64,000 nucleotides of DNA from an uncultured Bacilli bacterium (GTDB lineage: Bacteria > Bacillota_I > Bacilli_A > RF39 > UBA660), in the NCBI GenBank assembly GCA_934086315.1, contig CAKOHZ010000002.1, positions 296,464-360,463 on the forward strand, written 5' to 3'. Below the pieces are notes generated by a model that saw only the letters and a program-made list of their open reading frames with translations, did no database searches and was not told the origin of the DNA. Both the position numbers and the translations under genes were made by a program. Of the stretch, positions 18,681 through 61,521 are shown one piece after another (the first letter of the stretch is position 1; every line of letters begins with the position of its first letter).

Positions 18681-18802
18681 TTAGTAACTATTATAAACTA
18701 TTAATATTATTTTTTCCATTAAAATTAACAAAATACCACAAAAGAATTGTTTATTAAAACAAAAAATGATAAAATTTATTTAATAATAAAAGGAGAATAA
18801 AA

Positions 18803-19879: not shown

Positions 19880-19887
19880 AATAATTT

Positions 19888-19924
19888 AAACTAAATAAAG
19901 TAAAAATTTATTTAGTTTTTTATT
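19888..19924 (+). terminator. intrinsic terminator
   Basis: 12-bp stem aaactaaataaa/tttatttagttt with loop gtaaaaa, followed by a T-run. Confidence 0.55.
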
Positions 19925-20016
19925 GCCTATTCATGTAAAATTCCCTAAATATAATGCAAAATATGTCTATTTTTGCTATAATTATAAAAGATAATTAAGA
20001 ATGTAAAGGAGTACAC

Positions 20017-22173: not shown

Positions 22174-22181
22174 GAGGATTT

Positions 22182-23831: not shown

Positions 23832-23841
23832 TAAGAAAGAA

Positions 23842-25803: not shown

Positions 25804-25805
25804 CA

Positions 25806-25842
25806 AAAGAGTTCAAATTTTTGAACTCTTTTTCTTTTTTAT
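25806..25842. terminator. bidirectional intrinsic terminator between the LCP gene and sufB
   Basis: agagttcaa-atttt-ttgaactct 9-bp stem with T-runs on both sides. Confidence 0.6.
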
Positions 25843-37257: not shown

Positions 37258-37347
37258 ACTAATTCCCTCTAGGTAATTATATCATTATTATTATATTTTT
37301 TCAACAACATAAAAAAAAGGACCAATGTCCTTATTTTACACTTGGCA

Positions 37348-37713
37348 TTAGCCTTTAATAATATCATCAGAAGCAGTCTTACAATTAAATGGACTTGTAA
37401 TACATTTAGTACATTGTTTATAATCATCAGCACCTATTAAGTTCATAAGTACACCAACAATTGTTACAATTAAGAAAACTAATACTGCAGCGATTGCTTT
37501 TTTAATTAATTTATGTTGAGCATCTTTAATTTTATTCTCATCTTTTTCAGTAACAGCTTTAGCCATATCTAACATACCAACAACAATTAACATAATTGGT
37601 ACAACTACTTTAATAATGAAAATTGCGATACCAACTATTCTTAAAACTGGACCTAATTCATCACACAATTCGCCAGGTTGTACTGTAGTTAACACATTAA
37701 TTAAATTTAACAT
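37348..37713 (-). CDS. small two-TM membrane protein, last gene of the Tad-like cluster
   Basis: 121 aa. Two hydrophobic helices separated by a charged loop, and a Cys-containing C-terminus (CTKCITSPFNC). Confidence 0.5.
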   Translation of the reverse strand: MLNLINVLTTVQPGELCDELGPVLRIVGIAIFIIKVVVPIMLIVVGMLDMAKAVTEKDENKIKDAQHKLIKKAIAAVLVFLIVTIVGVLMNLIGADDYKQCTKCITSPFNCKTASDDIIKG

Positions 37714-37791
37714 AACTCATTTCTCCTTCTCTATATAAATTTTACATAATTTTTATTTTTTTGTCAACTATACACCATTTATATTTACTGG

Positions 37792-38736
37792 TTAAATTCC
37801 CATTTTGCTTATAAAGTTTTTAACTGGTTCAATATTATCTTGTCTATCATCACAAGGTGGTATAGTAGCGAATACTTTTAGTTTAGTTTCATACTCAAAT
37901 GTAGCTACATCTTCAGAGTTAAGTACACACTTATTTAATACAACTCTTTCATTTTTAAGCATTTCAAGTGCAGCTCTATTTTTTCTTAACATTTTATTTA
38001 TCATAATAGTTGATGGTTCTATTAAGTAATAAACTTGACTACATATTGAAACATCATCATAATCATTTAAATCAACAAGTACTACATCACACATTTGTTT
38101 CTTCATAAGTTCTTTTGGTAAATCTGAAGAAATAGTACTAACAAGATCTTTATCGTTAAAATATAAGAAGTCCACTTTATTTACCTCAATAGCACCTACA
38201 CTTCTAATTTCTGATAACATTTTTCTAATCATATAAATAAGAGTAGTAGCTCCAGCATGTTGAGTCATATTTTTAAATCCTATGATTCTCATCTTTCCGC
38301 CACCCATGCCCATACCATCAGAACCACTATTATCAGTAGTACCATAGTCAAGATCTTGTAAATTATGAATATTTACAACATCTCTATAAGTATGAGGATG
38401 AACTAATAAATAATTAATACCTTCAGCATTACGAGTAAAATTATAAATACCTAGTGATATTAATTTTGATAGATATGTCTTTGAATCACTTTCTGGACTA
38501 TCATCAAGTAATAAAATTACATTCTCCATATTTATATTCATCGCTAGTTTTTGTAAATTATCAGTATTTTGATAATCACGAATAGCAGTAATATCCAAAA
38601 TCATTTTATCATAATAGAAATTTGTAAAAGTATCTATTATCTCATCAACATTAAAGACCCCTTCCATGGACTTCATAACTTCAATATTTAAACCAATTAA
38701 AAGTTCTTTATATTTATTATAAACCATTACGTTCAT
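37792..38736 (-). CDS. TadZ/CpaE-like protein with degenerate P-loop
   Basis: 314 aa. MRIIGFKNMTQHAGATTLIYMI aligns to the MinD/ParA deviant Walker A (xxxSGKGGVGKTT) but has lost the lysines. N-terminal ~120-aa pseudo-receiver-like region. Clustered with CpaF/TadB/TadC homologs. Confidence 0.5.
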   Translation of the reverse strand: MNVMVYNKYKELLIGLNIEVMKSMEGVFNVDEIIDTFTNFYYDKMILDITAIRDYQNTDNLQKLAMNINMENVILLLDDSPESDSKTYLSKLISLGIYNFTRNAEGINYLLVHPHTYRDVVNIHNLQDLDYGTTDNSGSDGMGMGGGKMRIIGFKNMTQHAGATTLIYMIRKMLSEIRSVGAIEVNKVDFLYFNDKDLVSTISSDLPKELMKKQMCDVVLVDLNDYDDVSICSQVYYLIEPSTIMINKMLRKNRAALEMLKNERVVLNKCVLNSEDVATFEYETKLKVFATIPPCDDRQDNIEPVKNFISKMGI

Positions 38737-38762
38737 TATATCATCTCCCCTATCAAAATTTA

Positions 38763-39257
38763 TTATTCATTACAATTTAAACTACCAGTAACATCATAAA
38801 ACATAGTCTTAGTTTCACCAGCAATAGGTAATTTAACAGTGACTTCAATCACAGGTATAGTAAGTGCTATAAAAGTTGTTACTTTATAATAGATTTTACC
38901 ATTACCATCAGTAGGACAAAACTTTTTAAGACAATAGCCTCCATTTTGCATCTTTCCATCACCATTACAACCTGCTTGTTCTGCAGTATCATAATCATAA
39001 CCTAATGCTTTTATAAATGCAAATGCCTTTCCTTCAGTACTAGTATCAGTTTTTAATTGCTCCAAGTTAAAATCATGCAATCTAGCACTATCACTAGAAT
39101 ATGTAAAACCCTCATTTTTTTCAATTATATTAATGATTTCATTCTTGGCTCTAAAAGCTTTAGTGTAACTGATAGAATAAGCTAAAAATCCTGCAAATAA
39201 TGCAATAAAAATTATAACTAATCCAGTTAACCAAGTACCACCCATCGCATCCTTCAT
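38763..39257 (-). CDS. TadE-like pseudopilin candidate
   Basis: 164 aa. N-terminus MKDAMGG-TWLTGLVIIFIALFAGFLAY has the shape of a class III signal peptide (basic residues, Gly, hydrophobic helix). Confidence 0.45.
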   Translation of the reverse strand: MKDAMGGTWLTGLVIIFIALFAGFLAYSISYTKAFRAKNEIINIIEKNEGFTYSSDSARLHDFNLEQLKTDTSTEGKAFAFIKALGYDYDTAEQAGCNGDGKMQNGGYCLKKFCPTDGNGKIYYKVTTFIALTIPVIEVTVKLPIAGETKTMFYDVTGSLNCNE

Positions 39258-39353
39258 ATAACACTTCCTTTACAATTGTAGTATTTAAAAAGTACTACAG
39301 GTACATTGATATCAATCAATGACACCTATAGTACCAAAACTTAATACATTATA

Positions 39354-39659
39354 TTATGGTGTAGTTGTTCCACCTGTAGTTGTTCCACCTTCAGAATCTT
39401 GACCATAGTCAGTATCATAGCATTTGCCATTAGCATCGCCATCTCTACAACATTTCCAAACCTTAACAGTTGCTTGAGTACCATCGTCAAAACTTCTTAC
39501 ACTAACAGCTTGAAAGTCAGTACCATAAGTTCTACAAGTTTGATTAACTATAGATTTTTGAATCATTGGCCAAACAAATGCATAGAACAAACCACCAACA
39601 GCCGCAATAGCTATGATAGTAATAACTGTCATGTTTAATTCACCTGAAGCTTCTTTCAT
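39354..39659 (-). CDS. small pilin-like protein, Cys-containing with Thr/Gly-rich C-terminus
   Basis: 101 aa. MKEASG-ELNMTVITIIAIAAVGGLFYAF. Strong RBS AAAGGAGG. C-terminal GGTTTGGTTTP. Confidence 0.45.
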   Translation of the reverse strand: MKEASGELNMTVITIIAIAAVGGLFYAFVWPMIQKSIVNQTCRTYGTDFQAVSVRSFDDGTQATVKVWKCCRDGDANGKCYDTDYGQDSEGGTTTGGTTTP

Positions 39660-39729: not shown

Positions 39730-40527
39730 CTAAACACTCACAAACATTTGGAATATTGCTAGTACTAGAATAACCATAACACCTGCACCTGTTGATGTAA
39801 GCATTGTAAATGTTTTCTTTTCCATTTTTTCAAGACGTTCTTTATATTTAGTTTCTCTTGACTTATTTTGCAAATTTGAAATAGTTTTAGAGAATGCCAA
39901 TAATTGTTCTTGTTTTCTCTCCTGACTACCTAAACCAAGTCTATATAGAAGTCTCATCATACGCATACTATCACGAACAGGATATCTTCGAGCAAATGCC
40001 ATATAAGGTTCAATACTAGAGTCACCTGCATCTATAGAAGCTATCAAATCACGAAGTCCTGGTTTGAACATTTCTGGAGCTGTTTCTAAACTACGCGTAA
40101 TAGCAACAGGAACAGTATAGTGTTGAATTAAAATTTCTAAACTCTTTAGATAATATGGTAATTTCAAGTTGATATCATGTAAATGAACTTTGTAATAACT
40201 TTTTACTTTACTATAATCATCCTTAAACATAAGATAAGCACCAGCAAAACATAATACCAACTTAACAGCAAAATTAAGACTTTGAATACTAGTAATTGAT
40301 AATATCAAAAGTATTAAAAATGTAATAATAGCATTTTTTACTCTTTTTTGATATCTAAGATTTACGTCAACCTTTTCACCATATTTAGATACTACCAAGA
40401 AATCATAGTCATCTTCTTTTAATTTTGCAAATAGTACTTTATTATCATCAACAAACTTATTAAAATTAAAAGTACCTAAATAGTTAAATAACAATATAAT
40501 AATTACTCCAACAGCAAATATTTCCAT
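39730..40527 (-). CDS. TadC-like inner-membrane platform protein (T2SS-F family)
   Basis: 265 aa. TM-cytoplasmic domain-TM topology. Paired with, and start overlapping, the downstream TadB-like gene. Confidence 0.5.
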   Translation of the reverse strand: MEIFAVGVIIILLFNYLGTFNFNKFVDDNKVLFAKLKEDDYDFLVVSKYGEKVDVNLRYQKRVKNAIITFLILLILSITSIQSLNFAVKLVLCFAGAYLMFKDDYSKVKSYYKVHLHDINLKLPYYLKSLEILIQHYTVPVAITRSLETAPEMFKPGLRDLIASIDAGDSSIEPYMAFARRYPVRDSMRMMRLLYRLGLGSQERKQEQLLAFSKTISNLQNKSRETKYKERLEKMEKKTFTMLTSTGAGVMVILVLAIFQMFVSV

Positions 40528-41426
40528 TATTCAGCACCTACATCCTCATGGTAGTATTTTATACCTGATAGTAAGAAGTATGTATTAATTAATATTACAC
40601 CATGAAGTAATATTTGAACATACCATTGCTCAAGCAATTGTGTATAACTAGAATCACCTAATAATAATTGTACTAATAAAACTAATAAATACAGAGCTAC
40701 ACCAAATGTACAGAATTGTTTATAGAATGTTGTTCTATCAATTCTATCACGATATACACTTTCTACAAGCATATCTATATCTTGAAGCATGCCTTCTAAA
40801 GCTTCACCAGAATCTTTAGAACCTTCTTTAGTGATTTGTAAGAACAATTGATGCATATTCTTAATTACATAATAATCATATTTTTCATTCATAAAACGAA
40901 TAGCTTCATCGATAGTACCATTTTCATAAGACATTTGTATCATTTCTTTGACATCGCTTAATAATGGTTCCTCTAGTACTTCAGAATCTCTAACGCCTTC
41001 TAATGCTTTAACAAATGATTGTGTAGTGTTAAATTCCATAATAACATTAGTTGTATATACTTGAATTTGTTCAAATATATACTCACTATATGCCTTTTTA
41101 CATCTCATATAAGTCAAATATGGAATTACCATTATAGCGGCTGCAGCATACACTATACTCCATATAATACTATAAAAGTACAAGAATGAGACAAATGCAG
41201 CACCAACACCAAATACTACAATTTGAATAACATACTGGCGAGTTGAATATTCTTGTCCTAATTCTTTTGCTTTCTCACGAACAACTTTAAAAGAATAAGG
41301 AGCATATTTTTCATAAGTATTTGCAATAGTCTTAGTAATAAATTTGTATGAATTGTCACCAGTATTTTTTCTATATATTAATACAAATATAACAATAATA
41401 GCAACAATAATTATCTCAAAATACAT
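40527..41426 (-). CDS. TadB-like inner-membrane platform protein (T2SS-F family)
   Basis: 299 aa. Three to four TM helices flanking a cytoplasmic helical domain. Adjacent to the CpaF-like ATPase. Confidence 0.5.
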   Translation of the reverse strand: MYFEIIIVAIIVIFVLIYRKNTGDNSYKFITKTIANTYEKYAPYSFKVVREKAKELGQEYSTRQYVIQIVVFGVGAAFVSFLYFYSIIWSIVYAAAAIMVIPYLTYMRCKKAYSEYIFEQIQVYTTNVIMEFNTTQSFVKALEGVRDSEVLEEPLLSDVKEMIQMSYENGTIDEAIRFMNEKYDYYVIKNMHQLFLQITKEGSKDSGEALEGMLQDIDMLVESVYRDRIDRTTFYKQFCTFGVALYLLVLLVQLLLGDSSYTQLLEQWYVQILLHGVILINTYFLLSGIKYYHEDVGAE

Positions 41427-41441
41427 ATAACACCTCCATTA

Positions 41442-42884
41442 CTAAATTTCTACCATTTCTATATTATTAGTAGTTTGATTAACTACTGGTTCTTCTACAA
41501 TTAAATGTTCTTCTTGTGGTTCATTAACTACAGGCTGCACCATAGCCCCTGCAGCAACAGGTTGAGCAGTAACAATTGGTTCACTAGCAACCGGTTCACT
41601 AACGACTGCAACTTCCGAAACAGTATTAGGACCAGGACTAATTTCCGATTCACTTGCTACCTCAGAACCTACATTAGCAACATTATTGTCAACAATTTCA
41701 GGTTCATCAGAAGTGTCTCCATTCTGAATATTATTAACCTTCGCACTCTCTACACCACTACCAACAGTAGAAGTACCTTCGGTACTTTCACTTTGCTCAC
41801 CACTTGCTTCTTGTAATTCACTGCCTTTAGGTATAAATGGATCTTCTTGCATCATAACACCTTGTGACGCTAAATAATCAATTAAATGAGAAGTTGGATT
41901 ATTATATACTTCATTTTCCATCAAATCACGAGCATACAATATATTAACTTTTGCTTCATTAGTTTCATCATCAACATAAAATTCAACAACTTGAGTAATT
42001 TCTCTTTGAAATCTATTATATTTTTTTGAAAAGAAACCTTTAACGTGTATACCTAACTGAATATATCTATGCATACCTTTAACAAATTGATCAATATCTT
42101 GACTACTTTCAAGTAGTGAGTAAAGACGCATTGGAATACTTGAAGCTTTATCAGAGTGTATTGTAGATAAGATATTATGTCCTGAAGAAATTGAGTTACG
42201 AACAGCAAGAACAGCTTCTGCAGAACGAACCTCTGATAGTAAAATCCATCTTGGGTTTTGACGCATACAGGCTACCAAAACATCTGAGTAAGAAGCAATA
42301 TTATTTGTTTTCATTGCTACTATATCACGAGTTGGATAAATTTTATCCAAGTGAAGTTCTAATGTATCTTCAATTGTTATTATTTTTTCATCCTCTTTAA
42401 TATGACTTGCTAAGTATTTAACAAGCTCTGTTTTACCTGAACCAGTTTCTCCACTTACAAGAATATTACAGTGACCACCAACACAAGTCATCAAAAAGTC
42501 ATGAAGTTTTAAAGAAACATAATCTTCTTTAACTAATTTATCTTTATTCAATCTTATTTTTGCTGGAGTTTTTCTTATTAGAACAGCAATTCCATTCGTT
42601 GCAATAGAATCATGTACAAAGTTAAGACGTAACTCAGCACTTTCGGCATCTAGTAATGGATGTGCCATATTAAATGTTTTACCCATAACGTTAGAACATT
42701 GGAAAGCAAGTTTTTCCATTACTTCATTATTTAATCCCTCAATATGAGCTGGTTTAACACCTTGTGTTAAAGTTTTAATCCACAGCTGACCATTATTAGA
42801 ATACGAAATATCGGTAATATCATCATCTTCTAAAAGAGGCATTAACAAACCAAAGTCTATTTGTGAAAATACAGCATCCTCCAT
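41442..42884 (-). CDS. CpaF/TadA-family secretion ATPase with ~130-aa acidic low-complexity C-terminal tail
   Basis: Walker A NILVSGETGSGKTE, Asp box IITIEDTLEL and Walker B-like RWILLSEVRS. The tail is rich in E/S/V/P (…VASESEISPGPNTVSEVAVVSEPVASEP…). Confidence 0.8.
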   Translation of the reverse strand: MEDAVFSQIDFGLLMPLLEDDDITDISYSNNGQLWIKTLTQGVKPAHIEGLNNEVMEKLAFQCSNVMGKTFNMAHPLLDAESAELRLNFVHDSIATNGIAVLIRKTPAKIRLNKDKLVKEDYVSLKLHDFLMTCVGGHCNILVSGETGSGKTELVKYLASHIKEDEKIITIEDTLELHLDKIYPTRDIVAMKTNNIASYSDVLVACMRQNPRWILLSEVRSAEAVLAVRNSISSGHNILSTIHSDKASSIPMRLYSLLESSQDIDQFVKGMHRYIQLGIHVKGFFSKKYNRFQREITQVVEFYVDDETNEAKVNILYARDLMENEVYNNPTSHLIDYLASQGVMMQEDPFIPKGSELQEASGEQSESTEGTSTVGSGVESAKVNNIQNGDTSDEPEIVDNNVANVGSEVASESEISPGPNTVSEVAVVSEPVASEPIVTAQPVAAGAMVQPVVNEPQEEHLIVEEPVVNQTTNNIEMVEI

Positions 42885-42905: not shown

Positions 42906-43760
42906 TTATTCAGTAATGTTTATATCTCCTCCATTACCATTGTTTCCATTATCGCCGTTATCACCATTGTCAGTAGAATCATCAACAAAATCTAATGGAA
43001 CTTCCCTTGTTTCTTTAAGTATTAAATTTGTTAAATACTCACTAGAAACTTTTGTACTTCCTGGATTATAATTAGCATTTCTAACAACTGGAACCAAACT
43101 ACCAGTTCCAGAAATAGCTATAGCTTTTCTTAATAACAAGTGTAAGTCTTCAGGAACAGCAAAAATTAACGCAGAAGCATCTTTTTGATTAGCTCCTTTC
43201 TTAAAAATATGTGACCCATCACTATCTTTAACAGCTAAAACTGTAATACCTTCAATTAATTTACCAAAAACAAGTTTTCCACCATCACTAGTCATATAAT
43301 ACAAATCAATTGCATCTCCAGGATAAATAGAGTTACCATATGTAGTATTTGTAGAAACACTTAGTGAGAAAATTGTATAATCTTTATAAATGTTATTCCA
43401 AGCTGAATCAGGCATAGAATCCCAAGTAACAATTTCAGAACTATAAAATAAACTACCAGCAGGAATTATTGTATTATAATTAACATATTTTCCAACAACA
43501 TTCTTTTTATCACGAACAACAGTTGAAGTAACTAAAGAAGAAGCTACTTTAACAACACCTACATCTTCTTCTTTAATTTCCTTACGAGCACTTAAGTCTA
43601 TTAAAGCATACGGAACTTCAATTGCATTAATTGCTTTATTTACACGATAATTATAAGCAAGAAACAATATTATTAAACATGCAACACCAGCAACAATAGT
43701 AACTAAGCCTTTATTGCCTAATAATTTTTTAATAGCATTATTCATCCTATTCACCTCCAT
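42906..43760 (-). CDS. CpaB/RcpC-like pilus assembly protein
   Basis: N-terminal TM then a SAF-like segment (IEVPYALIDLSARKEIKEEDVGVVKVASSLV). C-terminal Gly/Asn/Asp-rich tail. Confidence 0.55.
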   Translation of the reverse strand: MEVNRMNNAIKKLLGNKGLVTIVAGVACLIILFLAYNYRVNKAINAIEVPYALIDLSARKEIKEEDVGVVKVASSLVTSTVVRDKKNVVGKYVNYNTIIPAGSLFYSSEIVTWDSMPDSAWNNIYKDYTIFSLSVSTNTTYGNSIYPGDAIDLYYMTSDGGKLVFGKLIEGITVLAVKDSDGSHIFKKGANQKDASALIFAVPEDLHLLLRKAIAISGTGSLVPVVRNANYNPGSTKVSSEYLTNLILKETREVPLDFVDDSTDNGDNGDNGNNGNGGDINITE

Positions 43761-44595
43761 TTACAACATTATTTGTATTTGAATCTACTTCAGAATTAGG
43801 ATTATCTATCTCAATATTTTTTAAATCTTCATTATCAACATTAACAGTTTTTGATAAAATTAACTCTTTTAAATAAGTACTACTAATTCTTGTATCTTTA
43901 GGATTATTAGAATAATCAGCATTACGAGGTACCGGAAAAATAGTACCGGATGTATACAATGCTTTTCTTAACAATAAGTGCATATCTTCAGGAATAGAGA
44001 AAATCAAATATCTAGGTTTTTCAGTAACACCACTTTTTTCAAATATATTATTATAATTACTATCAGTAACTGCTAAAACTCTAATACTTTCAATAAATTT
44101 TCCTATTAAAAGTTTCCCATCATTATCGTATCCTTGATAATATAAATCAATATAGTTATCAGTAAAAATTGAATTACCATATGTTGTTTCTATAGTAACA
44201 GGTAAAGCTACAATTGTATTACCATCAGCAATATTTTCATAAATACTTGATGGAAGCTCATCCCAAGTTAACAAAGTATTGTTATAAAACATACTATCAG
44301 CAGGAATTTCTACTTTATTACTAACATACATACCAATTATTCTGCTAGATTCAGTAATAACATTAGCAGTAATAACTTTTCCTGGAACTTTTCTAGTACC
44401 AACCATTTCAGAAGTTATTAAAGTTCTTGGTAACAATGTTTTAATAGCATATGGAACCATTCTAGGTTCAGTTGCTTTTTCAATTCTCCACCAATAAGCC
44501 CAATAAATTATAAGTAAACAAACAATTACTGCAAATATAGTTACAGTATTTTTATTTTTAAAAAATCTTTTAACCCCTATTAATACACTATTCAT
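43747..44595 (-). CDS. CpaB/RcpC-like pilus assembly protein, paralog
   Basis: Same architecture as the adjacent gene (…RMVPYAIKTLLPRTLITSEMVGTRKVPGKVI…). Confidence 0.55.
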   Translation of the reverse strand: MNSVLIGVKRFFKNKNTVTIFAVIVCLLIIYWAYWWRIEKATEPRMVPYAIKTLLPRTLITSEMVGTRKVPGKVITANVITESSRIIGMYVSNKVEIPADSMFYNNTLLTWDELPSSIYENIADGNTIVALPVTIETTYGNSIFTDNYIDLYYQGYDNDGKLLIGKFIESIRVLAVTDSNYNNIFEKSGVTEKPRYLIFSIPEDMHLLLRKALYTSGTIFPVPRNADYSNNPKDTRISSTYLKELILSKTVNVDNEDLKNIEIDNPNSEVDSNTNNVVNGGE

Positions 44596-44692: not shown

Positions 44693-45847
44693 TTAATTTC
44701 TTGTATACTTAAATCTAAGTTTCCATTTAATACCAGTATACATAAAGCATCTAACAGTTCCACCATTTTCTGCGGTTTTTGATTTAACTAAATTTCCATT
44801 TGCAGAAGATCTATTTCTATATTCTGCATTATATCTTAATTTAATTTGAATAGATGCTCTTTCACTATTAGTAGATGTATCATATGTTGTATAAAGATTA
44901 CAAGTGACTCCAATATTACTCACTTCACTCGCAGTAGCAAAGTAATTGAAGTTTTCTTCTACTGGAACAGTTCCACCATTATCTCCAATTAAATATTGTT
45001 GGAATTTTTGTTTCATAGTTTTATAATTTCTAACATCATTAATACTTTCAAATACTTTAGCAGAACTAGCAATAACTTCACAACTCTTAATTCTTCCTGC
45101 AATAATGTCTTCGTTCATTCCATTAGGTAATGACTTGTATGACATTAGGAATGACATATTTCCAGTAGTAGAACTATTATTGCAAGAGCCAGTTTCACTA
45201 TTATAAGCACTTGGGTTTTGTAAATATGCAATAGAATAGAAATCTAATACATTTGAAGTTAATAAGTTACTGTCATCAGGAGTTGGATTTACAGTATTTC
45301 CTCCACCGCCATTATCTCCTCCACCATCAGGAATATTTGGAGTTGGTGTAACATTTCTAGAACTACCATCAGGACATGCAACAGTAATAGTACTGCTTCC
45401 ACCTCCATTTCCATCTTCATCAGAATCTCCATCTGCTTGGCTATATATAGTTTCCAATATACCATTTACTAATGTATCCAAGTTAACATCAAAAGATGTT
45501 TCTTTAATATTAGCGGTATTTCCAGAACTAGTTCTTACACGAACACTAGCTTTAGGTGGTTCTTCATATATATCATAAAATTCTAGTTTATAAGTTTTAT
45601 TATTAGTAACACTTTCTGAAAATCTTCTAATGAAAACCTCAACAAATTTTTGTTCTGACATTACAAGTCTACCAGTTGTTCTATATGTACCATAGTCAAC
45701 TGCATCTATCATAGAAGATTCTAAAACCTCACGTGCTAAATAGAAATCTTCTTCAGAAGTTGTAGTCATTCTTTGAATTAAAAGCAAGATGACTACAATT
45801 ACAACTCCACAAAGTACTACAAAATATCCCCAAAATGAATGTTTCAT
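44693..45847 (-). CDS. pilin-like N-terminus protein with Gly/Ser/Asn-rich central region
   Basis: 384 aa. MKHSFWG-YFVVLCGVVIVVILLLI at the N-terminus. Central DGNGGGSS...GGGDNGGGGNT low-complexity segment. Confidence 0.5.
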   Translation of the reverse strand: MKHSFWGYFVVLCGVVIVVILLLIQRMTTTSEEDFYLAREVLESSMIDAVDYGTYRTTGRLVMSEQKFVEVFIRRFSESVTNNKTYKLEFYDIYEEPPKASVRVRTSSGNTANIKETSFDVNLDTLVNGILETIYSQADGDSDEDGNGGGSSTITVACPDGSSRNVTPTPNIPDGGGDNGGGGNTVNPTPDDSNLLTSNVLDFYSIAYLQNPSAYNSETGSCNNSSTTGNMSFLMSYKSLPNGMNEDIIAGRIKSCEVIASSAKVFESINDVRNYKTMKQKFQQYLIGDNGGTVPVEENFNYFATASEVSNIGVTCNLYTTYDTSTNSERASIQIKLRYNAEYRNRSSANGNLVKSKTAENGGTVRCFMYTGIKWKLRFKYTRN

Positions 45848-45862: not shown

Positions 45863-48800
45863 CTATGGATTTGAAAATTTAACAGTTTCAACATCATAAC
45901 TATTATTAGGTTGAGAAATTTCTTCTAAGAATGATGATTTACATTTATAGAAACCATTTAATCCACTTGGATCATTAACTAATTGACAAGATAAATAACT
46001 ATTGTCTTGGTAACCAACACCCATTAATTCTTGTTGAGTATTGTATTCTCTAATTCTACTAATTGCAGTTGGTGTAAGAATGAAACTATATTTTAAATTA
46101 CTTTCATCAGCAAACATATCGTCGCCCTTTTGTTCTATTTGTGTTTTTACATTTTCACCTAATGTTGTTGCCCAGTTTGTACCAATAGGCCTATTATTTT
46201 TTGTTGTATTAGAATCGTTTTGATCAGATGTAACTGAATTTGGGAAAACATTAGTTAAATCAATATTTCTATATACAAAACCATATCCTTTAGATTCATT
46301 ATCTTTTAACTCAAACTCATTACATTCTTTAGTAATAACCGGAACACCAGCAACTAATTTATAACAACTATTTTTACAAGCACTTAAATCCAATTTTCCA
46401 TTAGATGTTCTAGTAGCACAATCATATAAATTTGTTGTGTTGTAAACATCATATGAACATGTATAATCTAATGACACGTTATCATCAACAACAATTTTAA
46501 CATTATCGATATGTTGTTTTACAGTATAATTGCCTGTCTTACCTCCAGTATTTAATCCATTACTTACAGGATATTCTTCATTTCCTAATGGAGTCGTTAA
46601 ACCATTTCTACCTGCTTCTCCAACTTCACCAGTATAAGCACCAGCAGAGAATTTATCGCTACGCCAGAAATCAGTTTCAGTAACTACAACAAATGACGCG
46701 TAATCATTAGTAGGCAAAGATATTTTCTTTTTCTTACATTGAACGCTATTTAAAGTACCCTCACATTCAATTAAATCATGATCTTTCAAAGAATTACCTT
46801 TATCAAGTTCAACCTCTTGACCTTTCACATATTTATAACAATCAGGATTTCTATCATCATTATTTTTACAAAAATAAGTTTTGTTTAATTTTTCAGATGG
46901 CAATGTTTTTGTTTCTTTTTCAATTGTGACATTTTTGCCATATAACTCATCTTCATATTCTACTTTTAATTCTGCACAATCATTATTACTATCACTGCAT
47001 ACAGCTTTATCAAGTAAAATATTTTTTGCAGAACCTTTAGCACTTTTATTAATGCTTGCTGCTATAGTTCCATGATGTTCAGTACTAACATTTTGATAAA
47101 CATCTTCAATCTTTGGGGCAGTATCACCTGTTGCAACATACATATTACAATTTTGCAGATCATATATTAACTGAGCAACAGCATCCAATGCAGATTTATA
47201 TAGTTTATAATATTTATCTTCATCATCTGATGCTTTAGCAGGATCTCCTGGATCTCCTCTATTACAACTTCCGCTAGTACCATAACCATCATCATGCCCA
47301 CAACAAGAAGTTCCATTCTCACCACAAGAATAATCATGATTACAAGTGGTAGGATAACAAGAACTACTTTCATTTTCAACACCTGAATCTGTACTATAAG
47401 AGCCATTACTACATCTTATGTTAAAATTAACTCCCTTTTCAGAACCTGATTCAACCCAACAATACTTATATGGTATGCTTGAACCCTTAGTTGGCCAATA
47501 TAAATGCCATTGAATTGGTGGTAAATATTCACCAACTGAGCAATCTCCTGGACATCCAGTACCAGAATAACATTGTTTTCCTTCAATCAAAACTTGATGT
47601 GGTCCACCATTATTTTCTTCCCAGCTTAATGCTGATTCATATTTCTTCCATTCTACATAAGCATCCATCATTTTCTTCACAGCAGCATCATACTGTTGTA
47701 ACCAAGTATTCTTATTACCATATTTATTTTTAGTATCATAATAAATTTCTGAAGTACATTGTTGTTTTTGAAGAACTATACTAGTCAATGCAACATCAGT
47801 TCTTACAATTTCAGTAACATCTTCCTCACAAGCAAGAACGGATGGACCAATATCATATCTAAATTGCATTCCAGCATAAACTTTCTTTTTGTTTGCTAAA
47901 TAGAACACAACTTCTTTACGACAATACAAATCACAAACATTTTTATTAAGACCTACTTCTTCAGTTTTTCTAAATTGTAACTTATCTGAATCTTTACATG
48001 GATGTAAAATACAGTTCATATATGGATCTGATTTATCAAAACTATCATAACCATCGTAATTATTTCCACAAGTTGCTTGACCTAAATCTCCAGATAAAGT
48101 TTTAGATACTGGATTAAAGTCAGTACATTTTGTATCATCATTGCAAGGACAATCAGAGTACACAGATTTTTCAAACTTTTTATCTGTAGATGAATTTGGA
48201 CCACTTTCTTCCCTTTGTGACTTATTAAAAACAGCAGTATACATTATTTGATATAAACTAGGATTAATACAATGTCTATATTCTCTTATTAATCCAACTG
48301 AATTATATCCTTTTAATGTAACTTCAAAAATATACTTTTTCATTGAACTCTCAGATGTTTCAGTAGTACTACAAGTCATACTACCGCCAACTTCAAGTTC
48401 GCATTTTTCTTTACTACATGTACCACCTACAAGAGATAAATCTCCTTGTGGAACCTTAACTTTATTACCATTAGCATCTGTATAAAATACTTGAACATAC
48501 ATTCTACATCTAGAATCCTTCTTTAATAATTGATCTAAAGTACATTCAACCTCATATGTTTTAGTGGTTGTTTCTCTCTCATATTGTTCTATAAAAGATG
48601 TAGGCCATTTAGCTACCATACTAGCCCCACCATTATCTTTTTTTGAAGCCTCTATTTGAAATTTATCATCATTAGTGCCAAGTAAACCATCAAGAAATTT
48701 TTCACTACTATTACCATTAAACATATCTAATGCTTTGTTAAATAAAGGAATAGCAGCAATATAATTATTATTGCCAGACAAATTACCACAAAGCACACCT

Positions 48801-49804
48801 AGATTAGAATCGCTCTTAGCTTGCCAACATTCTTGTCCAGTATAACCACCAGCAGCAGCTTTAGCTGTACTTAAATAAACTTTAGTAGTTGAAAAATAAT
48901 CAAACTCTTGCTCAAATCCAACACCATCAACACCACTAATTGGATTACCTTTTACATTACCATAATATGAAGTCCACATTCTTAGAGCTGTAGTAACAGC
49001 ACCAAAGCCATATTCAGCATCATTACTAGTAAAAATTGTGTTACCATTACTATCAGTTGAAGGTATCATAGTATAATATAATATTTGTGCAAGACCACAA
49101 TAATAATGATTTTGTAACTTGTCATCACAATCTTTTAAATTCATTTCTTTATTTAAACAATAAGTTTCACCAGCAGCGCTAGGGCCTTTTTTACCTGGTT
49201 GTATACAATATGCACGATCACTACCATTTAATAAATATTCCCAAACAACAGAATCTTTTAATTTATCATTAAAACTTCCACTAACATTAGGATTACCTCT
49301 AACGCCTATTTTATAAACAGTTCTAAGTTCATCTGTAGCACAATAATTATTACAACTGCTTTGACAATAACTATTACATTCACCAGAACTATTATAACTT
49401 GTACCAGTAATATCACATTTATAATGGCCACGATAATCATATGTACAAGTTCCAGTAGCTATATGTTGTCTACACTCATCAGGAAGCATATCGCTAGCAC
49501 CATCTAAAGTACATTTATTTCTTACTGTTTGCATAGAATAAACACAAGCGTTAGGATCACTGCTACCAGTTGCTTTCCTACAAGCTTCTTGAGCAGCTTC
49601 TAAACCTGTATATGTTTTAGTATCCATAACAAAATCATCTTTTACTGTAGTATACTCTGCACCAGAAGCACTAACCCAATGCTGTCCAATCTTAGCTGTT
49701 GCTCCTGATGCACTAATTGTTACCCTATCATTTATACTTTCGGCATTTACATAACCAAAGCACAATAGTAAAGAAATAATTAATAAACTAAGCTTCTTCT
49801 TCAT
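45863..49804 (-). CDS. giant secreted cysteine-rich protein (1313 aa)
   Basis: Sec signal MKKKLSLLIISLLLCFGYVNA. Cys clusters throughout (e.g. SGECNSYCQSSCNNYC, SCYPTTCNHDYSCGENGTSCCGHDDGYG). Contains an RGD tripeptide. No C-terminal anchor. Confidence 0.65.
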   Translation of the reverse strand: MKKKLSLLIISLLLCFGYVNAESINDRVTISASGATAKIGQHWVSASGAEYTTVKDDFVMDTKTYTGLEAAQEACRKATGSSDPNACVYSMQTVRNKCTLDGASDMLPDECRQHIATGTCTYDYRGHYKCDITGTSYNSSGECNSYCQSSCNNYCATDELRTVYKIGVRGNPNVSGSFNDKLKDSVVWEYLLNGSDRAYCIQPGKKGPSAAGETYCLNKEMNLKDCDDKLQNHYYCGLAQILYYTMIPSTDSNGNTIFTSNDAEYGFGAVTTALRMWTSYYGNVKGNPISGVDGVGFEQEFDYFSTTKVYLSTAKAAAGGYTGQECWQAKSDSNLGVLCGNLSGNNNYIAAIPLFNKALDMFNGNSSEKFLDGLLGTNDDKFQIEASKKDNGGASMVAKWPTSFIEQYERETTTKTYEVECTLDQLLKKDSRCRMYVQVFYTDANGNKVKVPQGDLSLVGGTCSKEKCELEVGGSMTCSTTETSESSMKKYIFEVTLKGYNSVGLIREYRHCINPSLYQIMYTAVFNKSQREESGPNSSTDKKFEKSVYSDCPCNDDTKCTDFNPVSKTLSGDLGQATCGNNYDGYDSFDKSDPYMNCILHPCKDSDKLQFRKTEEVGLNKNVCDLYCRKEVVFYLANKKKVYAGMQFRYDIGPSVLACEEDVTEIVRTDVALTSIVLQKQQCTSEIYYDTKNKYGNKNTWLQQYDAAVKKMMDAYVEWKKYESALSWEENNGGPHQVLIEGKQCYSGTGCPGDCSVGEYLPPIQWHLYWPTKGSSIPYKYCWVESGSEKGVNFNIRCSNGSYSTDSGVENESSSCYPTTCNHDYSCGENGTSCCGHDDGYGTSGSCNRGDPGDPAKASDDEDKYYKLYKSALDAVAQLIYDLQNCNMYVATGDTAPKIEDVYQNVSTEHHGTIAASINKSAKGSAKNILLDKAVCSDSNNDCAELKVEYEDELYGKNVTIEKETKTLPSEKLNKTYFCKNNDDRNPDCYKYVKGQEVELDKGNSLKDHDLIECEGTLNSVQCKKKKISLPTNDYASFVVVTETDFWRSDKFSAGAYTGEVGEAGRNGLTTPLGNEEYPVSNGLNTGGKTGNYTVKQHIDNVKIVVDDNVSLDYTCSYDVYNTTNLYDCATRTSNGKLDLSACKNSCYKLVAGVPVITKECNEFELKDNESKGYGFVYRNIDLTNVFPNSVTSDQNDSNTTKNNRPIGTNWATTLGENVKTQIEQKGDDMFADESNLKYSFILTPTAISRIREYNTQQELMGVGYQDNSYLSCQLVNDPSGLNGFYKCKSSFLEEISQPNNSYDVETVKFSNP

Positions 49805-50490
49805 TATTCTTTACTTCCTTTCTTTTTGTAAATAAATATAATAACAATATAAAATAAAGATATAACAACAACTGGAATGACTACAAAATACCAATACGAT
49901 TTAATAAAATTCCAAACCTTTTGAAAAAAATTAAGCTTAGGAGTAACATCTGGATTGATAATTTCACCAAAATCATCGTGATTTAATTCAGAAGAATCAT
50001 AGTCAATTGAACAAATATCTTCATTTAAGTGCGCTTGACAATATTCAGTATCTCTATAAGTGTTATAAGCATTTACCTTATGAGAGAATTCTTTTATCTT
50101 TTCATTTGGACACTTAGATTTATCTCCACCATAAACTGTTATATTATAAGTTTTTGGTTCAAAATGAATATATGAACCTATCACATATGAATCAAAGAAG
50201 TCATCATAATAACCACTGTATTTCTCATTGCTCTCGCTATCAGTAACTTCTACTTTAACTTTATCTTTCATACCTCTTAAGGTATCACCAAAGCTTAATA
50301 AATAAAAATATTTTCTTTCACGTTCAACTTTATTATCTTTTCCTACTATCTCAAGATCTTCGACCAAAAATACATCCAATTTTTCAGCTAAATTATTTAA
50401 TTCATAATCATTGCATAAAGCGAATAATTTAGGTTGAAAAATCAAAGTAAATAATAGTACTAAAAGTAAAAGATTTATTTTCTTTTTCAT
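49804..50490 (-). CDS. secreted protein with C-terminal TM anchor and basic tail
   Basis: Signal peptide. C-terminal YWYFVVIPVVVISLFYIVIIFIYKKKGSKE. Start overlaps the stop of the giant gene. Confidence 0.55.
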   Translation of the reverse strand: MKKKINLLLLVLLFTLIFQPKLFALCNDYELNNLAEKLDVFLVEDLEIVGKDNKVERERKYFYLLSFGDTLRGMKDKVKVEVTDSESNEKYSGYYDDFFDSYVIGSYIHFEPKTYNITVYGGDKSKCPNEKIKEFSHKVNAYNTYRDTEYCQAHLNEDICSIDYDSSELNHDDFGEIINPDVTPKLNFFQKVWNFIKSYWYFVVIPVVVISLFYIVIIFIYKKKGSKE

Positions 50491-50547: not shown

Positions 50548-51204
50548 CTAAATTCCATGTTTAACTTTTCTTAGTTTACCATTAAAAATAAGGATTGTTA
50601 CACTACTAGAAATAACAACTAATAATATTTGAATTCCCCACCTGACAGTAAAATCTTTAATGTCGTCAAGTATTGTCCTATTAATATCTGGATCTTCAGG
50701 CTCCTCAACTGGAATTGAATTATTATAGTTTTTTATCATACTATCAAGTAAATCTTCAGTTGGTTTATAATTCAAGAATTTAGAAGTACATATCGTAAGT
50801 TTATTTCTATATCCATTACATTTACTATTATCATAAATTGTATTATAGTATGGTAACGAAATTTGTATAGTTCTTAAGTTTGAATTACAAGTTGTTTCAT
50901 TTGTATTAACATAAATGTTAAGTGAATTTCCTTCACTTAAATTTTTAATAGTTACTTCAAAATTTTTTTCTTCAGATGAAGAAAAAACCTCACTATTATA
51001 ACTTAAATATAAACCCTTAATTATGTTATAAAATTTAATTGTATATTCTTTTTTATTTTTATTATACGAAGTTTCATATTCAATATTCATTGAAGCTTTT
51101 TGATACTGAACAAACAATGAATTATCACAACCACCAGTATTACTAGTCGCATTAACAGCAAACGGTATCATTAAAAGTAACGCTATTAAAATTTTCTTTT
51201 TCAT
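50548..51204 (-). CDS. secreted protein with C-terminal TM anchor and basic tail
   Basis: Signal peptide MKKKILIALLLMIPFAVNA. C-terminal ILLVVISSSVTILIFNGKLRKVKHGI. Confidence 0.55.
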   Translation of the reverse strand: MKKKILIALLLMIPFAVNATSNTGGCDNSLFVQYQKASMNIEYETSYNKNKKEYTIKFYNIIKGLYLSYNSEVFSSSEEKNFEVTIKNLSEGNSLNIYVNTNETTCNSNLRTIQISLPYYNTIYDNSKCNGYRNKLTICTSKFLNYKPTEDLLDSMIKNYNNSIPVEEPEDPDINRTILDDIKDFTVRWGIQILLVVISSSVTILIFNGKLRKVKHGI

Positions 51205-51220: not shown

Positions 51221-52873
51221 TTATTCTTTTATTAAAACTGCATGTACTACTAATCTTTTTTCACCATTTCCAGCACATGTAGATAATGTTAAAATTTTAT
51301 CTCCATACTCTATTTTATCATTTGTCTTAAAAGTACTTCTTCCTCTAATAAGTTTAACAAAACTATCAAATTCTTTTTTATTTTCAAAATCAGTTTTTAA
51401 ATAATCAGTAGTGTAATTAACTCTATACCCAGCAAATATTTTAAATTTGTATTCTCCATTAGGAGTATCATAGCTAATAATCATATTCTCACTATTCTTT
51501 CTAAAACTTGAAGTAAGAACATATCTTAATGTACCAAACATTGTACCATTAAGCATACTATGGCCATATATAATATTATTTGAACTAAAGTTAACACTAT
51601 CATTTCTATAATCCATATATAACCAACCCATAGAACTTTTTCTTTTATAGAAATCTCTAGATAGATAATAACTATTATCAGAATGTTGAACTACTGGATA
51701 ATTAATTTCAGTACCATTAATTGTTAAAAATCCAACTGTTTCTTTATTAATCTTTTTTAGTTTAGAAAACACCTTCTCAAAATTATATCTACTATTTGTT
51801 TTATTTTCATTATTTGAAGTATTTGTATTACTATTAGAACTATTATTACTGTTATCAATATCTTCATCATTATTTTCACTATTGTTATTATTTTTATCAT
51901 TAAATCTATCTAATTCGAAATTATTATCAGCTGCGTAACTACCATTATTAATAGCATTATTTAACTCATCAATACTCATCTTTTCAACATATTCATACGA
52001 CTTAACAATAATCAAACTAACTAAGCTTACATAAACGCATAATAGAGATATAAGTTTTAAATTGTTAAATGTTAATTGTTTAAACAAATTATTAAACAAG
52101 AATGTATTAGAATATACGATTCTAAACTCACAAGTATATTCATCTTTACATTTCTTGTTTAATTCTTTTAACCAAGCAAAATTTTTAGTAATAAAGTTAT
52201 CCTCATCATAGCTTTGATGCAAGAACACAATTATATTCCTAGATTCGTCTTTTTTTACTAAATCAATAATTGAACCTATTAGTTCCTTTGAAAACACATA
52301 TATATGTATAGATTTAAGATTATAATTAATTCTTAAAAATTCTTTTAAATCTAAAAGTAACGTACTATAGTTTTCTCTAATTTCTATATTCTTTTTATAA
52401 TATAATGTTTCATAATCAAAAGCATCCTGAAGTAACATAAATCTATCAGATACCTTCTCTTTATTATATAGATTTACTTCAACTCCATTAATTTTAAACT
52501 TATCAATAATGAATTTAGGCATATAATAACAATCTATTTTCTTTAGTGAATTTACTCCTAAAAACATTTCATAATCTGCAAGACCTATTGTAGAAGGAAA
52601 ATCTAATCTTAAATAACTTATATTTAATTCATCTAAAATATATATACTATATTTAAAAGTAATTAATCTTTTTATTGTAAGTATATCTATATTATTATTC
52701 TTTAAAAGTTCTATTACTTTAGAATAATTTTTTCTATAATATTTAAGTGTTAAAAATAATGAAGCATTATAAAACTCTAAACTATTAACATGTTTACTCT
52801 CTTCATCATTAATAGTTCTAAAGTCAAAGAATAAAGTTTTATCTCTAATTGTCAAAACAATATATTCTTTCAT
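51221..52873 (-). CDS. sortase class-B-like catalytic domain fused to an N-terminal ~270-aa cytoplasmic domain via a TM helix and an Asn/Ser-rich linker
   Basis: The C-domain (GFLTINGTEINYPVVQHSDNSYYL…IIYGHSM…ILTLSTCAGNG…RLVVHA) matches the SrtB motifs (INYPVVQ, YGH, LxTC, conserved Arg). TM LISLLCVYVSLVSLIIV around residues 270-290. The N-domain is unassigned. Confidence 0.65.
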   Translation of the reverse strand: MKEYIVLTIRDKTLFFDFRTINDEESKHVNSLEFYNASLFLTLKYYRKNYSKVIELLKNNNIDILTIKRLITFKYSIYILDELNISYLRLDFPSTIGLADYEMFLGVNSLKKIDCYYMPKFIIDKFKINGVEVNLYNKEKVSDRFMLLQDAFDYETLYYKKNIEIRENYSTLLLDLKEFLRINYNLKSIHIYVFSKELIGSIIDLVKKDESRNIIVFLHQSYDEDNFITKNFAWLKELNKKCKDEYTCEFRIVYSNTFLFNNLFKQLTFNNLKLISLLCVYVSLVSLIIVKSYEYVEKMSIDELNNAINNGSYAADNNFELDRFNDKNNNNSENNDEDIDNSNNSSNSNTNTSNNENKTNSRYNFEKVFSKLKKINKETVGFLTINGTEINYPVVQHSDNSYYLSRDFYKRKSSMGWLYMDYRNDSVNFSSNNIIYGHSMLNGTMFGTLRYVLTSSFRKNSENMIISYDTPNGEYKFKIFAGYRVNYTTDYLKTDFENKKEFDSFVKLIRGRSTFKTNDKIEYGDKILTLSTCAGNGEKRLVVHAVLIKE

Positions 52874-52933
52874 TACGCACTCCTAGTATACAAATATATA
52901 ATAACATAAATCTAAATAAAAAAAAATATGAAA

Positions 52934-53473
52934 CTATTCAATTCCATATTTTTCAATCATTTTCTCAAGTACTTTATAATTAATATATTTAAGCTCACTA
53001 CTCATAGCTTCTTGAGCTTCTCCATCTTTAATATATATAAGTAATGGAGCATTAGTAATTTGATCTTTAATATTAGGATATTTTTCTTTTAATGTAACTA
53101 AATAATCAGTATTATCTCCATAATCAGCTACATTCCAATATATAAAATCATCTAATAAATCTTTCTTTTCTAAAACACTATACATTTTTTTCTCGTTACT
53201 ATATATTTCGTCATTACCAGTATAACTTACATATAAAAGTACATCTCCTGTTTCAGTTAAAGCAAAATCAGCATCTTTTGAATTAATTTGTTTTACTTTT
53301 TGATCTAAGAATACACTAGTATTTAATTTATTATTTTTATAAGTTAAATAGAAAGTTCTTAAATATAACGAAAGTATTATAACTAATATAGACACAACCA
53401 ATACAATAAAATAATTACGAGTTGGTATCTTTTTATCAAATATTTCAAATTTCTTCTTTAATAATTTCTTCAT
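52934..53473 (-). CDS. membrane-anchored hypothetical protein, Cys-free; first gene of the cluster
   Basis: N-terminal TM YFIVLVVSILVIILSLYL. RBS GGAGGA. Confidence 0.5.
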   Translation of the reverse strand: MKKLLKKKFEIFDKKIPTRNYFIVLVVSILVIILSLYLRTFYLTYKNNKLNTSVFLDQKVKQINSKDADFALTETGDVLLYVSYTGNDEIYSNEKKMYSVLEKKDLLDDFIYWNVADYGDNTDYLVTLKEKYPNIKDQITNAPLLIYIKDGEAQEAMSSELKYINYKVLEKMIEKYGIE

Positions 53474-53590
53474 ATGTCCTCCAATATCCTACATATACAT
53501 TTTAACACAATAAATTATGTTTTTCAAACTATTTATTTATAGTAGAAAAAATAATTTATTTATTATATAATTCTTTCTAGAGGTATTATT

Positions 53591-54157: not shown

Positions 54158-54190
54158 AACTGAAGAAATAAATCTTCAGTTTTATTTTGT
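54155..54190. terminator. bidirectional terminator
   Basis: aaactgaaga-aataaa-tcttcagttt hairpin flanked by A and T runs. Lies between convergent genes. Confidence 0.55.
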
Positions 54191-61506: not shown

Positions 61507-61521
61507 ATAATGCCTCCAACT

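Follow-up and report, generated by a model that had tools for sequence, protein, structure and literature searches.

A class B sortase with a conserved, predicted cytoplasmic N-terminal domain in an uncultured Bacilli bacterium

A stretch of 64,000 nucleotides from an uncultured Bacilli bacterium of the RF39 lineage (contig CAKOHZ010000002.1, positions 296,464 to 360,463; hereafter, the window) contains a gene in which the catalytic domain of a class B sortase (SrtB) is preceded by a long N-terminal domain and a transmembrane (TM) helix. The gene occupies positions 51221..52873 of the minus strand and encodes a protein of 550 amino acids (aa), referred to below as the fusion sortase. The best explanation is that the gene encodes a real and active SrtB from a separate, conserved subfamily. 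Judging from sequence comparisons, we put at about 0.5 the probability that it is an active SrtB whose cytoplasmic domain acts as a docking module, most likely for the C-terminal tail of its substrates.

Architecture and conservation of the fusion sortase

The gene is a single open reading frame (ORF) with an ATG start codon at 52873, preceded at a distance of 6 nucleotides (nt) by the Shine-Dalgarno sequence AGGAG (52880..52884, minus strand, as are all coordinates of the sortase gene and its operon given below). At the G–C content of the window (26%), stop codons have a frequency of 0.078 per codon, i.e., about one per 13 codons, and the chance of 270 open codons is 3e-10. The view of an earlier note on this DNA, that one frame with a domain of about 270 aa ahead of the TM helix is unlikely to be open by chance, was thus borne out. 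No in-frame ATG and no start codon preceded by a Shine-Dalgarno-like sequence was found between residue 219 and the TM helix, and the only later ATG of the ORF, codon 299, lies behind the helix.

From the N-terminus, the protein consists of a predicted cytoplasmic domain of alternating beta-strands and alpha-helices (N-domain; residues 1-255, 52109..52873), a juxtamembrane segment FLFNNLFKQLTFNNL that is conserved across distant members of the family (residues 256-272, 52058..52108), a lone TM helix in N-in/C-out orientation (about residues 272-291, 52001..52057), an extracytoplasmic low-complexity linker rich in Asn, Ser, Asp and Glu (residues 292-375, 51749..52000), and the class B sortase catalytic domain (residues 376-550, 51224..51748) with His438, Cys533 and Arg540. 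Hydropathy analysis revealed one strongly hydrophobic segment (272-290), and the net charge of +1 in the 15 residues before the helix and of -3 in the 15 residues after it is consistent with N-in topology. The N-terminus carries no signal peptide. Because the sortase domain must be outside the membrane, topology rules would place residues 1-270 in the cytoplasm. The linker, in which 24 of 84 residues are Asn, varies in both sequence and length and is the least conserved part of the protein throughout the family; it is probably a disordered, flexible extracellular tether. The earlier note had recognised this Asn/Ser-rich region and placed it ahead of the TM helix; the linker is present, and its position is between the membrane and the catalytic domain.

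The assignment to class B relies on several models. Residues 383-547 match the Pfam Sortase family (PF04203; E-value, 2.9e-12; 46.9 bits vs. a cut-off of 26.6), and the protein scores 169.9 bits with the NCBIfam equivalog model TIGR03064 "class B sortase", the curated cut-off of which is 153.75. The best solved relative is SrtB of Bacillus anthracis (2oqw; E-value, 2.8e-39), and the alignment spans the class B N-terminal helix region, YGH, TLSTC and RLVVHA; taken together, the solved SrtB structures of B. anthracis, Staphylococcus aureus, Clostridioides difficile and Listeria monocytogenes gave E-values of 1e-32 to 3e-39, and the matches to solved SrtBs as a whole ranged from 2.8e-39 to 1e-14. 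The motifs named in the earlier note were found where it had put them: INYPVVQ at 390-396, IIYGH at 434-438, LSTC at 530-533, and Arg540 within KRLVVHA. His438, Cys533 (of TLSTC) and Arg540 align with the corresponding residues of B. anthracis SrtB, so the catalytic triad is intact, and among 109 close relatives [LIV][ST]TC is kept in all and YGH in 106. The short N-terminal signal anchor of class B sortases is missing, as the TM helix follows a domain of 270 aa and precedes a linker of 84 aa. The departure from class B is therefore one of architecture, not of the catalytic domain. Among distant members of the family, two proteins have no Cys at the catalytic position (P0123, LSTY; P0138, LTTF), while a third (P0137, LSSC) keeps it; all three retain the N-domain and the TM helix, and they may be inactive paralogues or sequencing errors.

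The fusion is a constant feature of the family. A search with residues 1-311 alone yielded 184 clusters, nearly all of which consist of proteins of 530-545 aa with a Sortase domain, and a profile search of 1.84 billion representatives (50% clustering level) returned 124 matches. Those of at least 500 aa nearly all have a predicted TM helix at about 255-286 (four fell below the crude hydropathy threshold) and nearly always keep [LI][ST]TC near the C-terminal end; in all, the layout was seen in 50 distant representatives. Bar truncated entries, the N-domain was essentially never seen without the sortase part. A pattern scan, in which one genome per species was used, gave 42 related loci, almost all with a single ORF of about 1.6 kb; they come from uncultured low-GC gut metagenome-assembled genomes (MAGs) labelled as Bacilli, Mollicutes, Tenericutes, Erysipelotrichaceae, or Clostridium sp. 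CAG:524 / CAG:1000. The N-terminal start MKEYIVL... is conserved among relatives, and the identical 550-aa protein was found on independently assembled contigs from different samples. The locus recurs on a contig of 254 kb (ERZ27287293 k141_733170), and the protein encoded next to the sortase, called '218' below, on one of 756 kb. The N-domain and the catalytic domain are shown to be under similar purifying selection, with ratios of nonsynonymous to synonymous substitution rates (dN/dS) of 0.13-0.19 and 0.11-0.19, respectively, in the five closest pairs. The fusion thus withstood the objection raised by the earlier note itself, namely that a sequencing error or an internal start might split the ORF into two genes.

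Residues 1-270 have no match in Pfam, NCBIfam or the PDB sequences, in line with the unknown fold that the earlier note had ascribed to them. The AlphaFold2 model of the N-domain, computed from a 28-row alignment, is confident, with a mean predicted local distance difference test (pLDDT) score of 87.2 and a predicted template modelling (pTM) score of 0.77. It opens with a beta-hairpin, after which beta-strand/alpha-helix units, about nine in number, recur every 25 residues or so. The fold comparison, for which Foldseek was run against the PDB, gave no match with an E-value < 1e-3 and template modelling scores (TM-scores) of at most 0.30; the weak matches were TIM barrels mixed with leucine-rich repeat (LRR) proteins (NLRP, SDS22), i.e., generic beta/alpha repeats. 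No internal sequence repeat was detected by hhalign. An LRR-type repeat domain was thus rejected in spite of the beta/alpha period of about 25 residues, given these TM-scores and the hhalign result. In distant members, the best-kept positions of the N-domain are mostly hydrophobic, to which the juxtamembrane pattern N-x-F-K-Q-L-x-x-N-N-L-K is added, and the mean consensus frequency is 0.49 in residues 256-272 vs. 0.42 in the rest of the N-domain. Close relatives share a number of invariant polar residues (DESRN, LHQ, EFR) that distant ones have not kept. This points to a scaffold or to a binding function, and the candidate role of the N-domain as an enzyme was rejected on this ground.

Substrates, tail motif and proposed docking

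No ORF of the 64-kb window, and none within 10 kb on either side of the 42 related loci, was found to encode an xPxT[GNSAD] signal with a hydrophobic segment and a basic tail behind it, which extends to the relatives the earlier note's remark that the neighbouring genes encode no obvious substrate with an LPXTG or NPxTG-type signal. The picture is different in distant members of the family. In seven of nine informative distant lineages (loci are designated by L numbers here), a divergent gene just upstream of the fusion sortase gene encodes a signal-peptide protein that ends in an SrtB-type signal, a TM segment and a basic tail. These signals, with the C-terminal residues of the same proteins, are SPKTG...KRKNKFSNI in a Flg_new protein (L045/46), NPKTG...KKSKQFDTI in a VWA protein (L048), NPKTG...SRKQKVQSL in a protein of 374 aa (L052), NPRTG...KKTDKRSAFSRI in a SpaA-type protein (L053), NPQTG...TKKNKIYHI in a protein of 236 aa (L054), NPKTG...NKKKLFKQI in a protein of 369 aa (L055), and NAKTG...RKNNKFYKI in a protein of 217 aa (L056). 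Known SrtB specificities are NPKTG in B. anthracis, NPQTN in S. aureus and (S/P)PXTG in C. difficile (PMC11987632, PMC4155245). As the signals of the distant lineages match these characterised types, the family is best seen as one of functional SrtBs. Since genes for GerA, for a TagO-like transferase and for an LCP ligase are also present in the window, the organism is very probably walled; genomics of RF39-type Bacilli predicted walled species that retain srtA/B (PMC10868615).

Three of the distant loci (L047, L048 and L052) also have PedC-like and Tad-like genes near the fusion sortase, as the window does (see below), while no such genes were found in the available flanks (about 2.5-10 kb per side) of L045, L053, L055 and L056. 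In L048 (3706-5457) and L052 (8036-9793), the fusion sortase gene is separated from the Tad-like operon by a gene for a HerA/DUF87-type ATPase, which is convergent to the sortase gene and is absent at the locus of the window. The clade of the window looks like a derived state, from which both the substrate gene and the HerA-like ATPase gene have gone.

In all seven cognate substrate tails, position -4 is hydrophobic and the last residue is Ile or Leu, i.e., the cytoplasmic side of the substrate carries a basic cluster followed by hydrophobic-x-x-[I/L]-COOH. In a wider set of tails, obtained from homologues of the L055 substrate after removal of duplicate tails (proteins P0276-P0303), hydrophobic-x-x-[I/L/V]-COOH was present in 19 of 22 NPxTG-type tails and in none of six VPxT[G/S/L] homologues (Fisher p = 2e-4, the sequences being partly homologous and the samples therefore not independent). 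The VPxT[G/S/L] homologues are presumably served by another sortase. Sorting signals of this type may thereby have a third element, the tail motif. The co-variation of a sequence-specific C-terminus with the outer motif calls for a cytoplasmic reader, and the N-domain is the only family-specific cytoplasmic element. Cytoplasmic control or coupling of the sortase, which the earlier note had suggested, is thus favoured by the purifying selection on the N-domain and by the conserved tail motif in distant relatives, and it is still something that we infer.

The proposed mechanism comprises three steps, in which our confidence falls roughly from the first to the last. Like other SrtBs, the catalytic domain would cleave NPxTG-type signals outside the membrane and attach the protein to the wall; the N-domain would be a protein-binding (docking) module; and its ligand would be the C-terminal tail of the substrate, with the basic cluster and hydrophobic-x-x-[I/L]-COOH. 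Selection and retention of the substrate would thus take place on both sides of the membrane, and the catalytic domain would reach the motif by means of the flexible linker of 84 residues. In the clade of the window, where the canonical substrate gene appears to have been lost and the sortase gene lies between the genes for a PedC-like protein and for a membrane-anchored protein called '218' here, the substrate may be encoded elsewhere in the genome or be a non-canonical protein of the operon.

Several points weigh against this docking model. Since the window has no NPxTG substrate, it is from conservation only that activity of the enzyme in this organism is deduced. The tail motif could have come along with a sorting-signal module that these proteins have in common, with no selection by the sortase; the tail sequences compared are partly homologous, and the 22 NPxTG-type database proteins were taken regardless of whether their genomes have a fusion sortase. 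The tail of '218' (KHGI) is outside the register of the tail motif. In addition, owing to the loss of the polar invariants of close relatives in distant ones, no binding site can be pointed to in the N-domain.

The operon, alternative readings and the rest of the window

The fusion sortase gene is the second of a co-directional block of 16 genes that runs from 53473 down to 37348. The boundaries of this operon were defined by consensus scans alone: the best promoter-like site upstream of it, a consensus match only, is at 53499..53527, a terminator-like hairpin with a T-run follows the last gene at 37317..37332, and no other minus-strand terminator-like site was found from the first gene to that hairpin. 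The first gene (52934..53473) encodes a membrane-anchored PedC-like/DUF6568 protein (PF20207; 85.6 bits vs. a cut-off of 27.1; the precomputed annotation is also "PedC-like"), the gene for which is found together with that of the fusion sortase in the close lineages and in several of the distant ones. Directly 3' of the sortase gene, in 40 of the 42 loci and often with a stop/start overlap, lies the gene for '218' (50548..51204), a protein with a signal peptide, an Ig/FN3-like ectodomain, a C-terminal TM helix and the tail RK(I/V)KHGI-COOH. The next protein, '228' (49804..50490), has a signal peptide, a Cys-containing ectodomain, a C-terminal TM helix and a basic tail, and its stop codon overlaps by 1 nt the start of the gene for a secreted protein of 1313 aa (45863..49804), suggesting translational coupling. 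The 1313-aa protein contains 58 Cys (4.4%), lacks a C-terminal anchor and has no Pfam match; it is a candidate adhesin or filament-associated protein, with a probable role in adhesion. The PedC-like protein is devoid of Cys and, thus, cannot be a classical thiol oxidoreductase for it.

Further downstream are the genes for a DUF5411 protein with a pilin-like N-terminal hydrophobic segment (44693..45847), two CpaB/RcpC-like proteins (42906..44595; individually 43747-44595 and 42906-43760), a T2SSE-family secretion ATPase of TadA/CpaF, VirB11 or FlaI-like type (41442..42884), two paralogous polytopic membrane proteins in TadB/TadC position (39730..41426), and, at the end of the operon, four small genes (37348..39659). 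The matches of the CpaB/RcpC-like pair are all below family cut-offs (TIGR03177, E-values of 3.7e-5 and 2.2e-7; PF16976, 17-24 bits vs. 28.8). The ATPase scores 98.4 bits with PF00437 (T2SSE), above the cut-off, and falls below those of the VirB11, TadA-type, TrbB and FlaI models; its C-terminal low-complexity extension of about 130 aa is rich in Glu, Val, Pro and Ser. Extensions of this kind are not known to be typical of TadA/CpaF or VirB11 ATPases. The polytopic paralogues (about 20% identity) fit TadB/TadC by position, size, paralogy and polytopic nature only, and no T2SSF match was found in 18 members of the two families. The last four genes encode two pilin-like proteins of 101 and 164 aa, in which a short leader is followed by a hydrophobic segment, a cytoplasmic protein of 314 aa, and a two-TM protein of 121 aa with a weak T4SS_pilin match; the 101-, 164- and 314-aa proteins have no match to Flp, TadZ/CpaE or any other family. 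No A24 prepilin peptidase was present among the roughly 35 of 55 window ORFs that were scanned. The gene order is kept in related loci, the only common variation being that the 228-1313 pair is moved upstream of the PedC-like gene. From its predicted products, the operon, to which the sortase gene is shown to belong, probably encodes a divergent Tad-like type IV filament machine; as the ATPase alone passes a family cut-off, and T2SSF, TadZ, Flp and prepilin peptidase have no match, it is not classifiable as a Tad system.

The C-terminus of '218', [KR]K[IV]KHG[IV]-COOH, is almost invariant in about 40 species (L001-L042, L052), whereas the ectodomain is only about 37% identical, which suggests a specific cytoplasmic partner of the tail. 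As classical sortase substrates, '218' and '228' were both rejected, as neither has a Pro-x-Thr-Gly-type motif; '218' has a semi-conserved Thr with a hydrophobic P1' residue, and this motif is missing where a true NPKTG substrate exists. Kinship of the N-domain with the 314-aa protein was likewise rejected (hhalign probability, 0.2%).

With these genes in view, the docking model may be extended to a two-sided selection, in which the N-domain would be the receptor for K-hydrophobic-x-x-[I/L]-COOH, a hitherto unrecognised third part of the sorting signal, and the '218' tail would, in this genome, tie the sortase to the Tad-like machine. We regard this extension as tentative and rather improbable. 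If it is true, two surface-assembly systems thought to be independent would be physically coupled.

A rather unlikely alternative is that the N-domain couples the sortase to the Tad-like machine by docking to one of its cytoplasmic parts (secretion ATPase, 314-aa protein, platform proteins or the invariant KHGI tail of '218'), so that wall anchoring would take place at the export site of the filament and of the Cys-rich 1313-aa protein. The sortase gene is within the operon in all 42 close loci, Tad-like genes adjoin it in the distant L047, L048 and L052, the cytoplasmic tail of the adjacent '218' is near-invariant, and the order of cytoplasmic domain, TM helix and outer domain is the topology of GspL-like assembly proteins, by which an ATPase is connected with outer parts. 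However, the N-domain is present in full in L045 and L053 (7-10 kb on each side), where no Tad-like gene is found in the available flank, and the same applies to L055 (about 2.5 + 8.5 kb) and L056 (10 + about 4.7 kb), although the operon could lie elsewhere in those genomes; the neighbours in these four loci are housekeeping genes and one NPxTG substrate. Moreover, GspL and PilM are absent from the top PDB fold matches, and profile similarity to the 314-aa protein was not detected.

The occurrence of the domain throughout the family, whatever the gene context, would also fit a general localisation, oligomerisation or regulatory module, unrelated to tails and filament machine alike, which might target the enzyme to the septum, the Sec translocon or sites of wall synthesis, or gate its activity. 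In other Gram-positive bacteria, the short cytoplasmic and TM parts of sortases and the basic tails of substrates influence focal localisation. The best-kept positions of distant N-domains, which are mostly hydrophobic or structural, and the juxtamembrane segment would be in agreement with such a role, and the L055 gene adjoins the mraZ-PBP division/wall cluster. We nevertheless consider it unlikely, because it leaves the conserved hydrophobic-x-x-[I/L] motif of the NPxTG substrates unexplained and because no likeness to any known localisation or regulatory domain was detectable.

The missing canonical substrate in the 64 kb of the window and around its 42 relatives could also mean that the enzyme has ceased to anchor NPxTG proteins in this clade and processes a protein of the operon at a non-canonical site, for instance by cutting '218' after the semi-conserved Thr177 before the TM helix, or in the maturation of the '228'/1313-aa pair. 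Both '218' and '228' have a signal peptide, a C-terminal TM helix and a basic tail, and about 32 of 40 '218' homologues keep, some 12 residues ahead of the TM helix, a Thr that is followed by hydrophobic residues. However, a Thr without Pro at P3 and followed by I/F/L, not by G/N, is unlike any known sortase site; the motif is missing from the '218' homologues of L048 and L052, beside the classical NPKTG substrate; in the '218' model, the Thr caps one long helix that enters the membrane; and '228' lacks a conserved motif. Such processing is therefore very improbable. Lastly, hardly any weight is left for a sequencing or assembly error that joined an upstream gene to a standard SrtB gene: such errors look like the locus in the long-read-style MAG chromosome CP091739.1 (L041), which is split into short ORF fragments, but a frameshift or merged-gene artefact is ruled out here by a layout that recurs, in differing DNA sequences, in 42 species and over 180 clusters, by the conserved N-terminus, by the identical proteins of independent assemblies, by the lack of an internal ATG or Shine-Dalgarno-like sequence ahead of the TM helix, and by an N-domain that is essentially never separate from the sortase part except in truncated entries. 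The fragmentation of L041, which concerns the whole locus, fits many frameshift errors in CP091739.1, in contrast to the intact ORFs elsewhere.

The remainder of the window includes other genes for surface proteins. The gene at 20017-22173 (plus strand) encodes a protein of 718 aa with two SH3_3 domains, a cadherin-like beta-sandwich and a C-terminal type I dockerin (E-value, 8e-11), which is unexpected in a small low-GC genome; no cohesin was found among the ORFs scanned (about 35 of 55). Its neighbours are genes for a cadherin-like/BatD protein and for an LCP-family protein, the tail of which is rich in Pro and Thr. The GC and AT skews flip sign at 18000-26000, across a block of plus-strand genes (18803-25803), while nearly all coding in the rest of the window is on the minus strand, and the GC skew there is strongly negative. 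On the minus strand, 54182-55792 and 63059-63877 each encode a surface protein with PARCEL/DUF285 repeats, a type characteristic of lipoproteins of Mycoplasma and Listeria; in related loci, such genes are variably present between the HD gene and the gene for a protein of 864 aa. The latter protein (56026-58620, minus strand) has no Pfam match, and its gene adjoins that of a PcrA/UvrD helicase. In 21 related loci, the gene is likewise found upstream of the operon, mostly with the helicase gene next to it. At 60955-62544 (minus strand), a gene for an S26/SipW-like signal peptidase follows that of a 340-aa protein with an N-terminal anchor, a pair which we take to resemble the SipW/TasA type.

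Comparison with known systems

Sortases are the textbook example of minimal membrane-tethered enzymes. The fusion sortase shares with the class B enzymes of S. aureus, B. anthracis, C. difficile and L. monocytogenes (TIGR03064, MEROPS C60B) the catalytic domain, the triad and the location outside the membrane, and its relatives adjoin NPKTG, NPQTG, NAKTG and SPKTG substrates of the kind that those enzymes cleave. Canonical SrtBs begin with the membrane anchor, which in C. difficile SrtB comprises residues 2-25 (PMC4155245), whereas here a conserved domain of 270 aa precedes the anchor and a linker of 84 aa, which is probably disordered, follows it. The substrates of the relatives also differ from canonical ones in the additional C-terminal motif, and the locus is not an isd haem-uptake locus. 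The choice of substrates by sortases is known to depend on the extracellular motif, with the hydrophobic segment and the basic tail being treated as a passive retention signal (PMC5569036). With its conserved cytoplasmic domain under selection and the conserved C-terminal motif of its substrates, the family makes it testable whether recognition or regulation by a sortase may involve the cytoplasmic end of the substrate or a cytoplasmic machine.

With Tad/Flp (type IVc) pili and the DUF5411 operon, the operon of the window has in common a T2SSE-family ATPase, two proteins with weak CpaB/RcpC-like matches, two polytopic paralogues, pilin-like N-termini and DUF5411. A "secretion-related" operon of DUF5411, CpaF and PilC was predicted as a new system of gut Clostridia in Roseburia, Ruminococcus and Eubacterium, with no mention of a sortase (Miller et al. 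2022; PMC9523054). In contrast to Tad/Flp systems, no T2SSF, TadZ/CpaE, Flp or prepilin-peptidase match was obtained here, and, compared with the DUF5411 operon, the sortase fusion, the PedC-like protein, the two C-terminally anchored Ig-like/Cys-containing proteins and the Cys-rich protein of 1313 aa are additional. The class B pilus sortase of Streptococcus pyogenes, for which SipA is mentioned as a cofactor (PMC11987632), is alike in that it belongs to a surface-filament locus with a dedicated accessory membrane protein, for which the PedC-like protein is the candidate here. However, the filament genes of the window are of type IV and not sortase-polymerised, the PedC-like protein is unrelated to signal peptidases, and no pilin with a sorting signal, pilin motif or E-box lies beside the sortase gene in the operon.

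In the open-access literature searched for sortases with a large cytoplasmic domain, for sortases together with Tad systems, and for RF39 together with sortases, the architecture is not described. The family is widespread in uncultured reduced-genome gut Bacilli, the surface biology of which is essentially uncharted, and "sortases" of 520-550 aa that belong to it should be annotated as such and not as mis-merged genes. In layout, the fusion sortase comes close to GspL and PilM-PilN, in which a single TM helix joins a cytoplasmic domain of about 250 aa to an extracytoplasmic one, and which are encoded in type IV filament-like operons; it differs from them in that no similarity of fold or sequence was detected and that the outer domain is an enzyme. 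What is new, then, is a conserved and as yet unexplained elaboration of the SrtB layout, the catalytic half of which is ordinary class B and represents no new class of enzyme.

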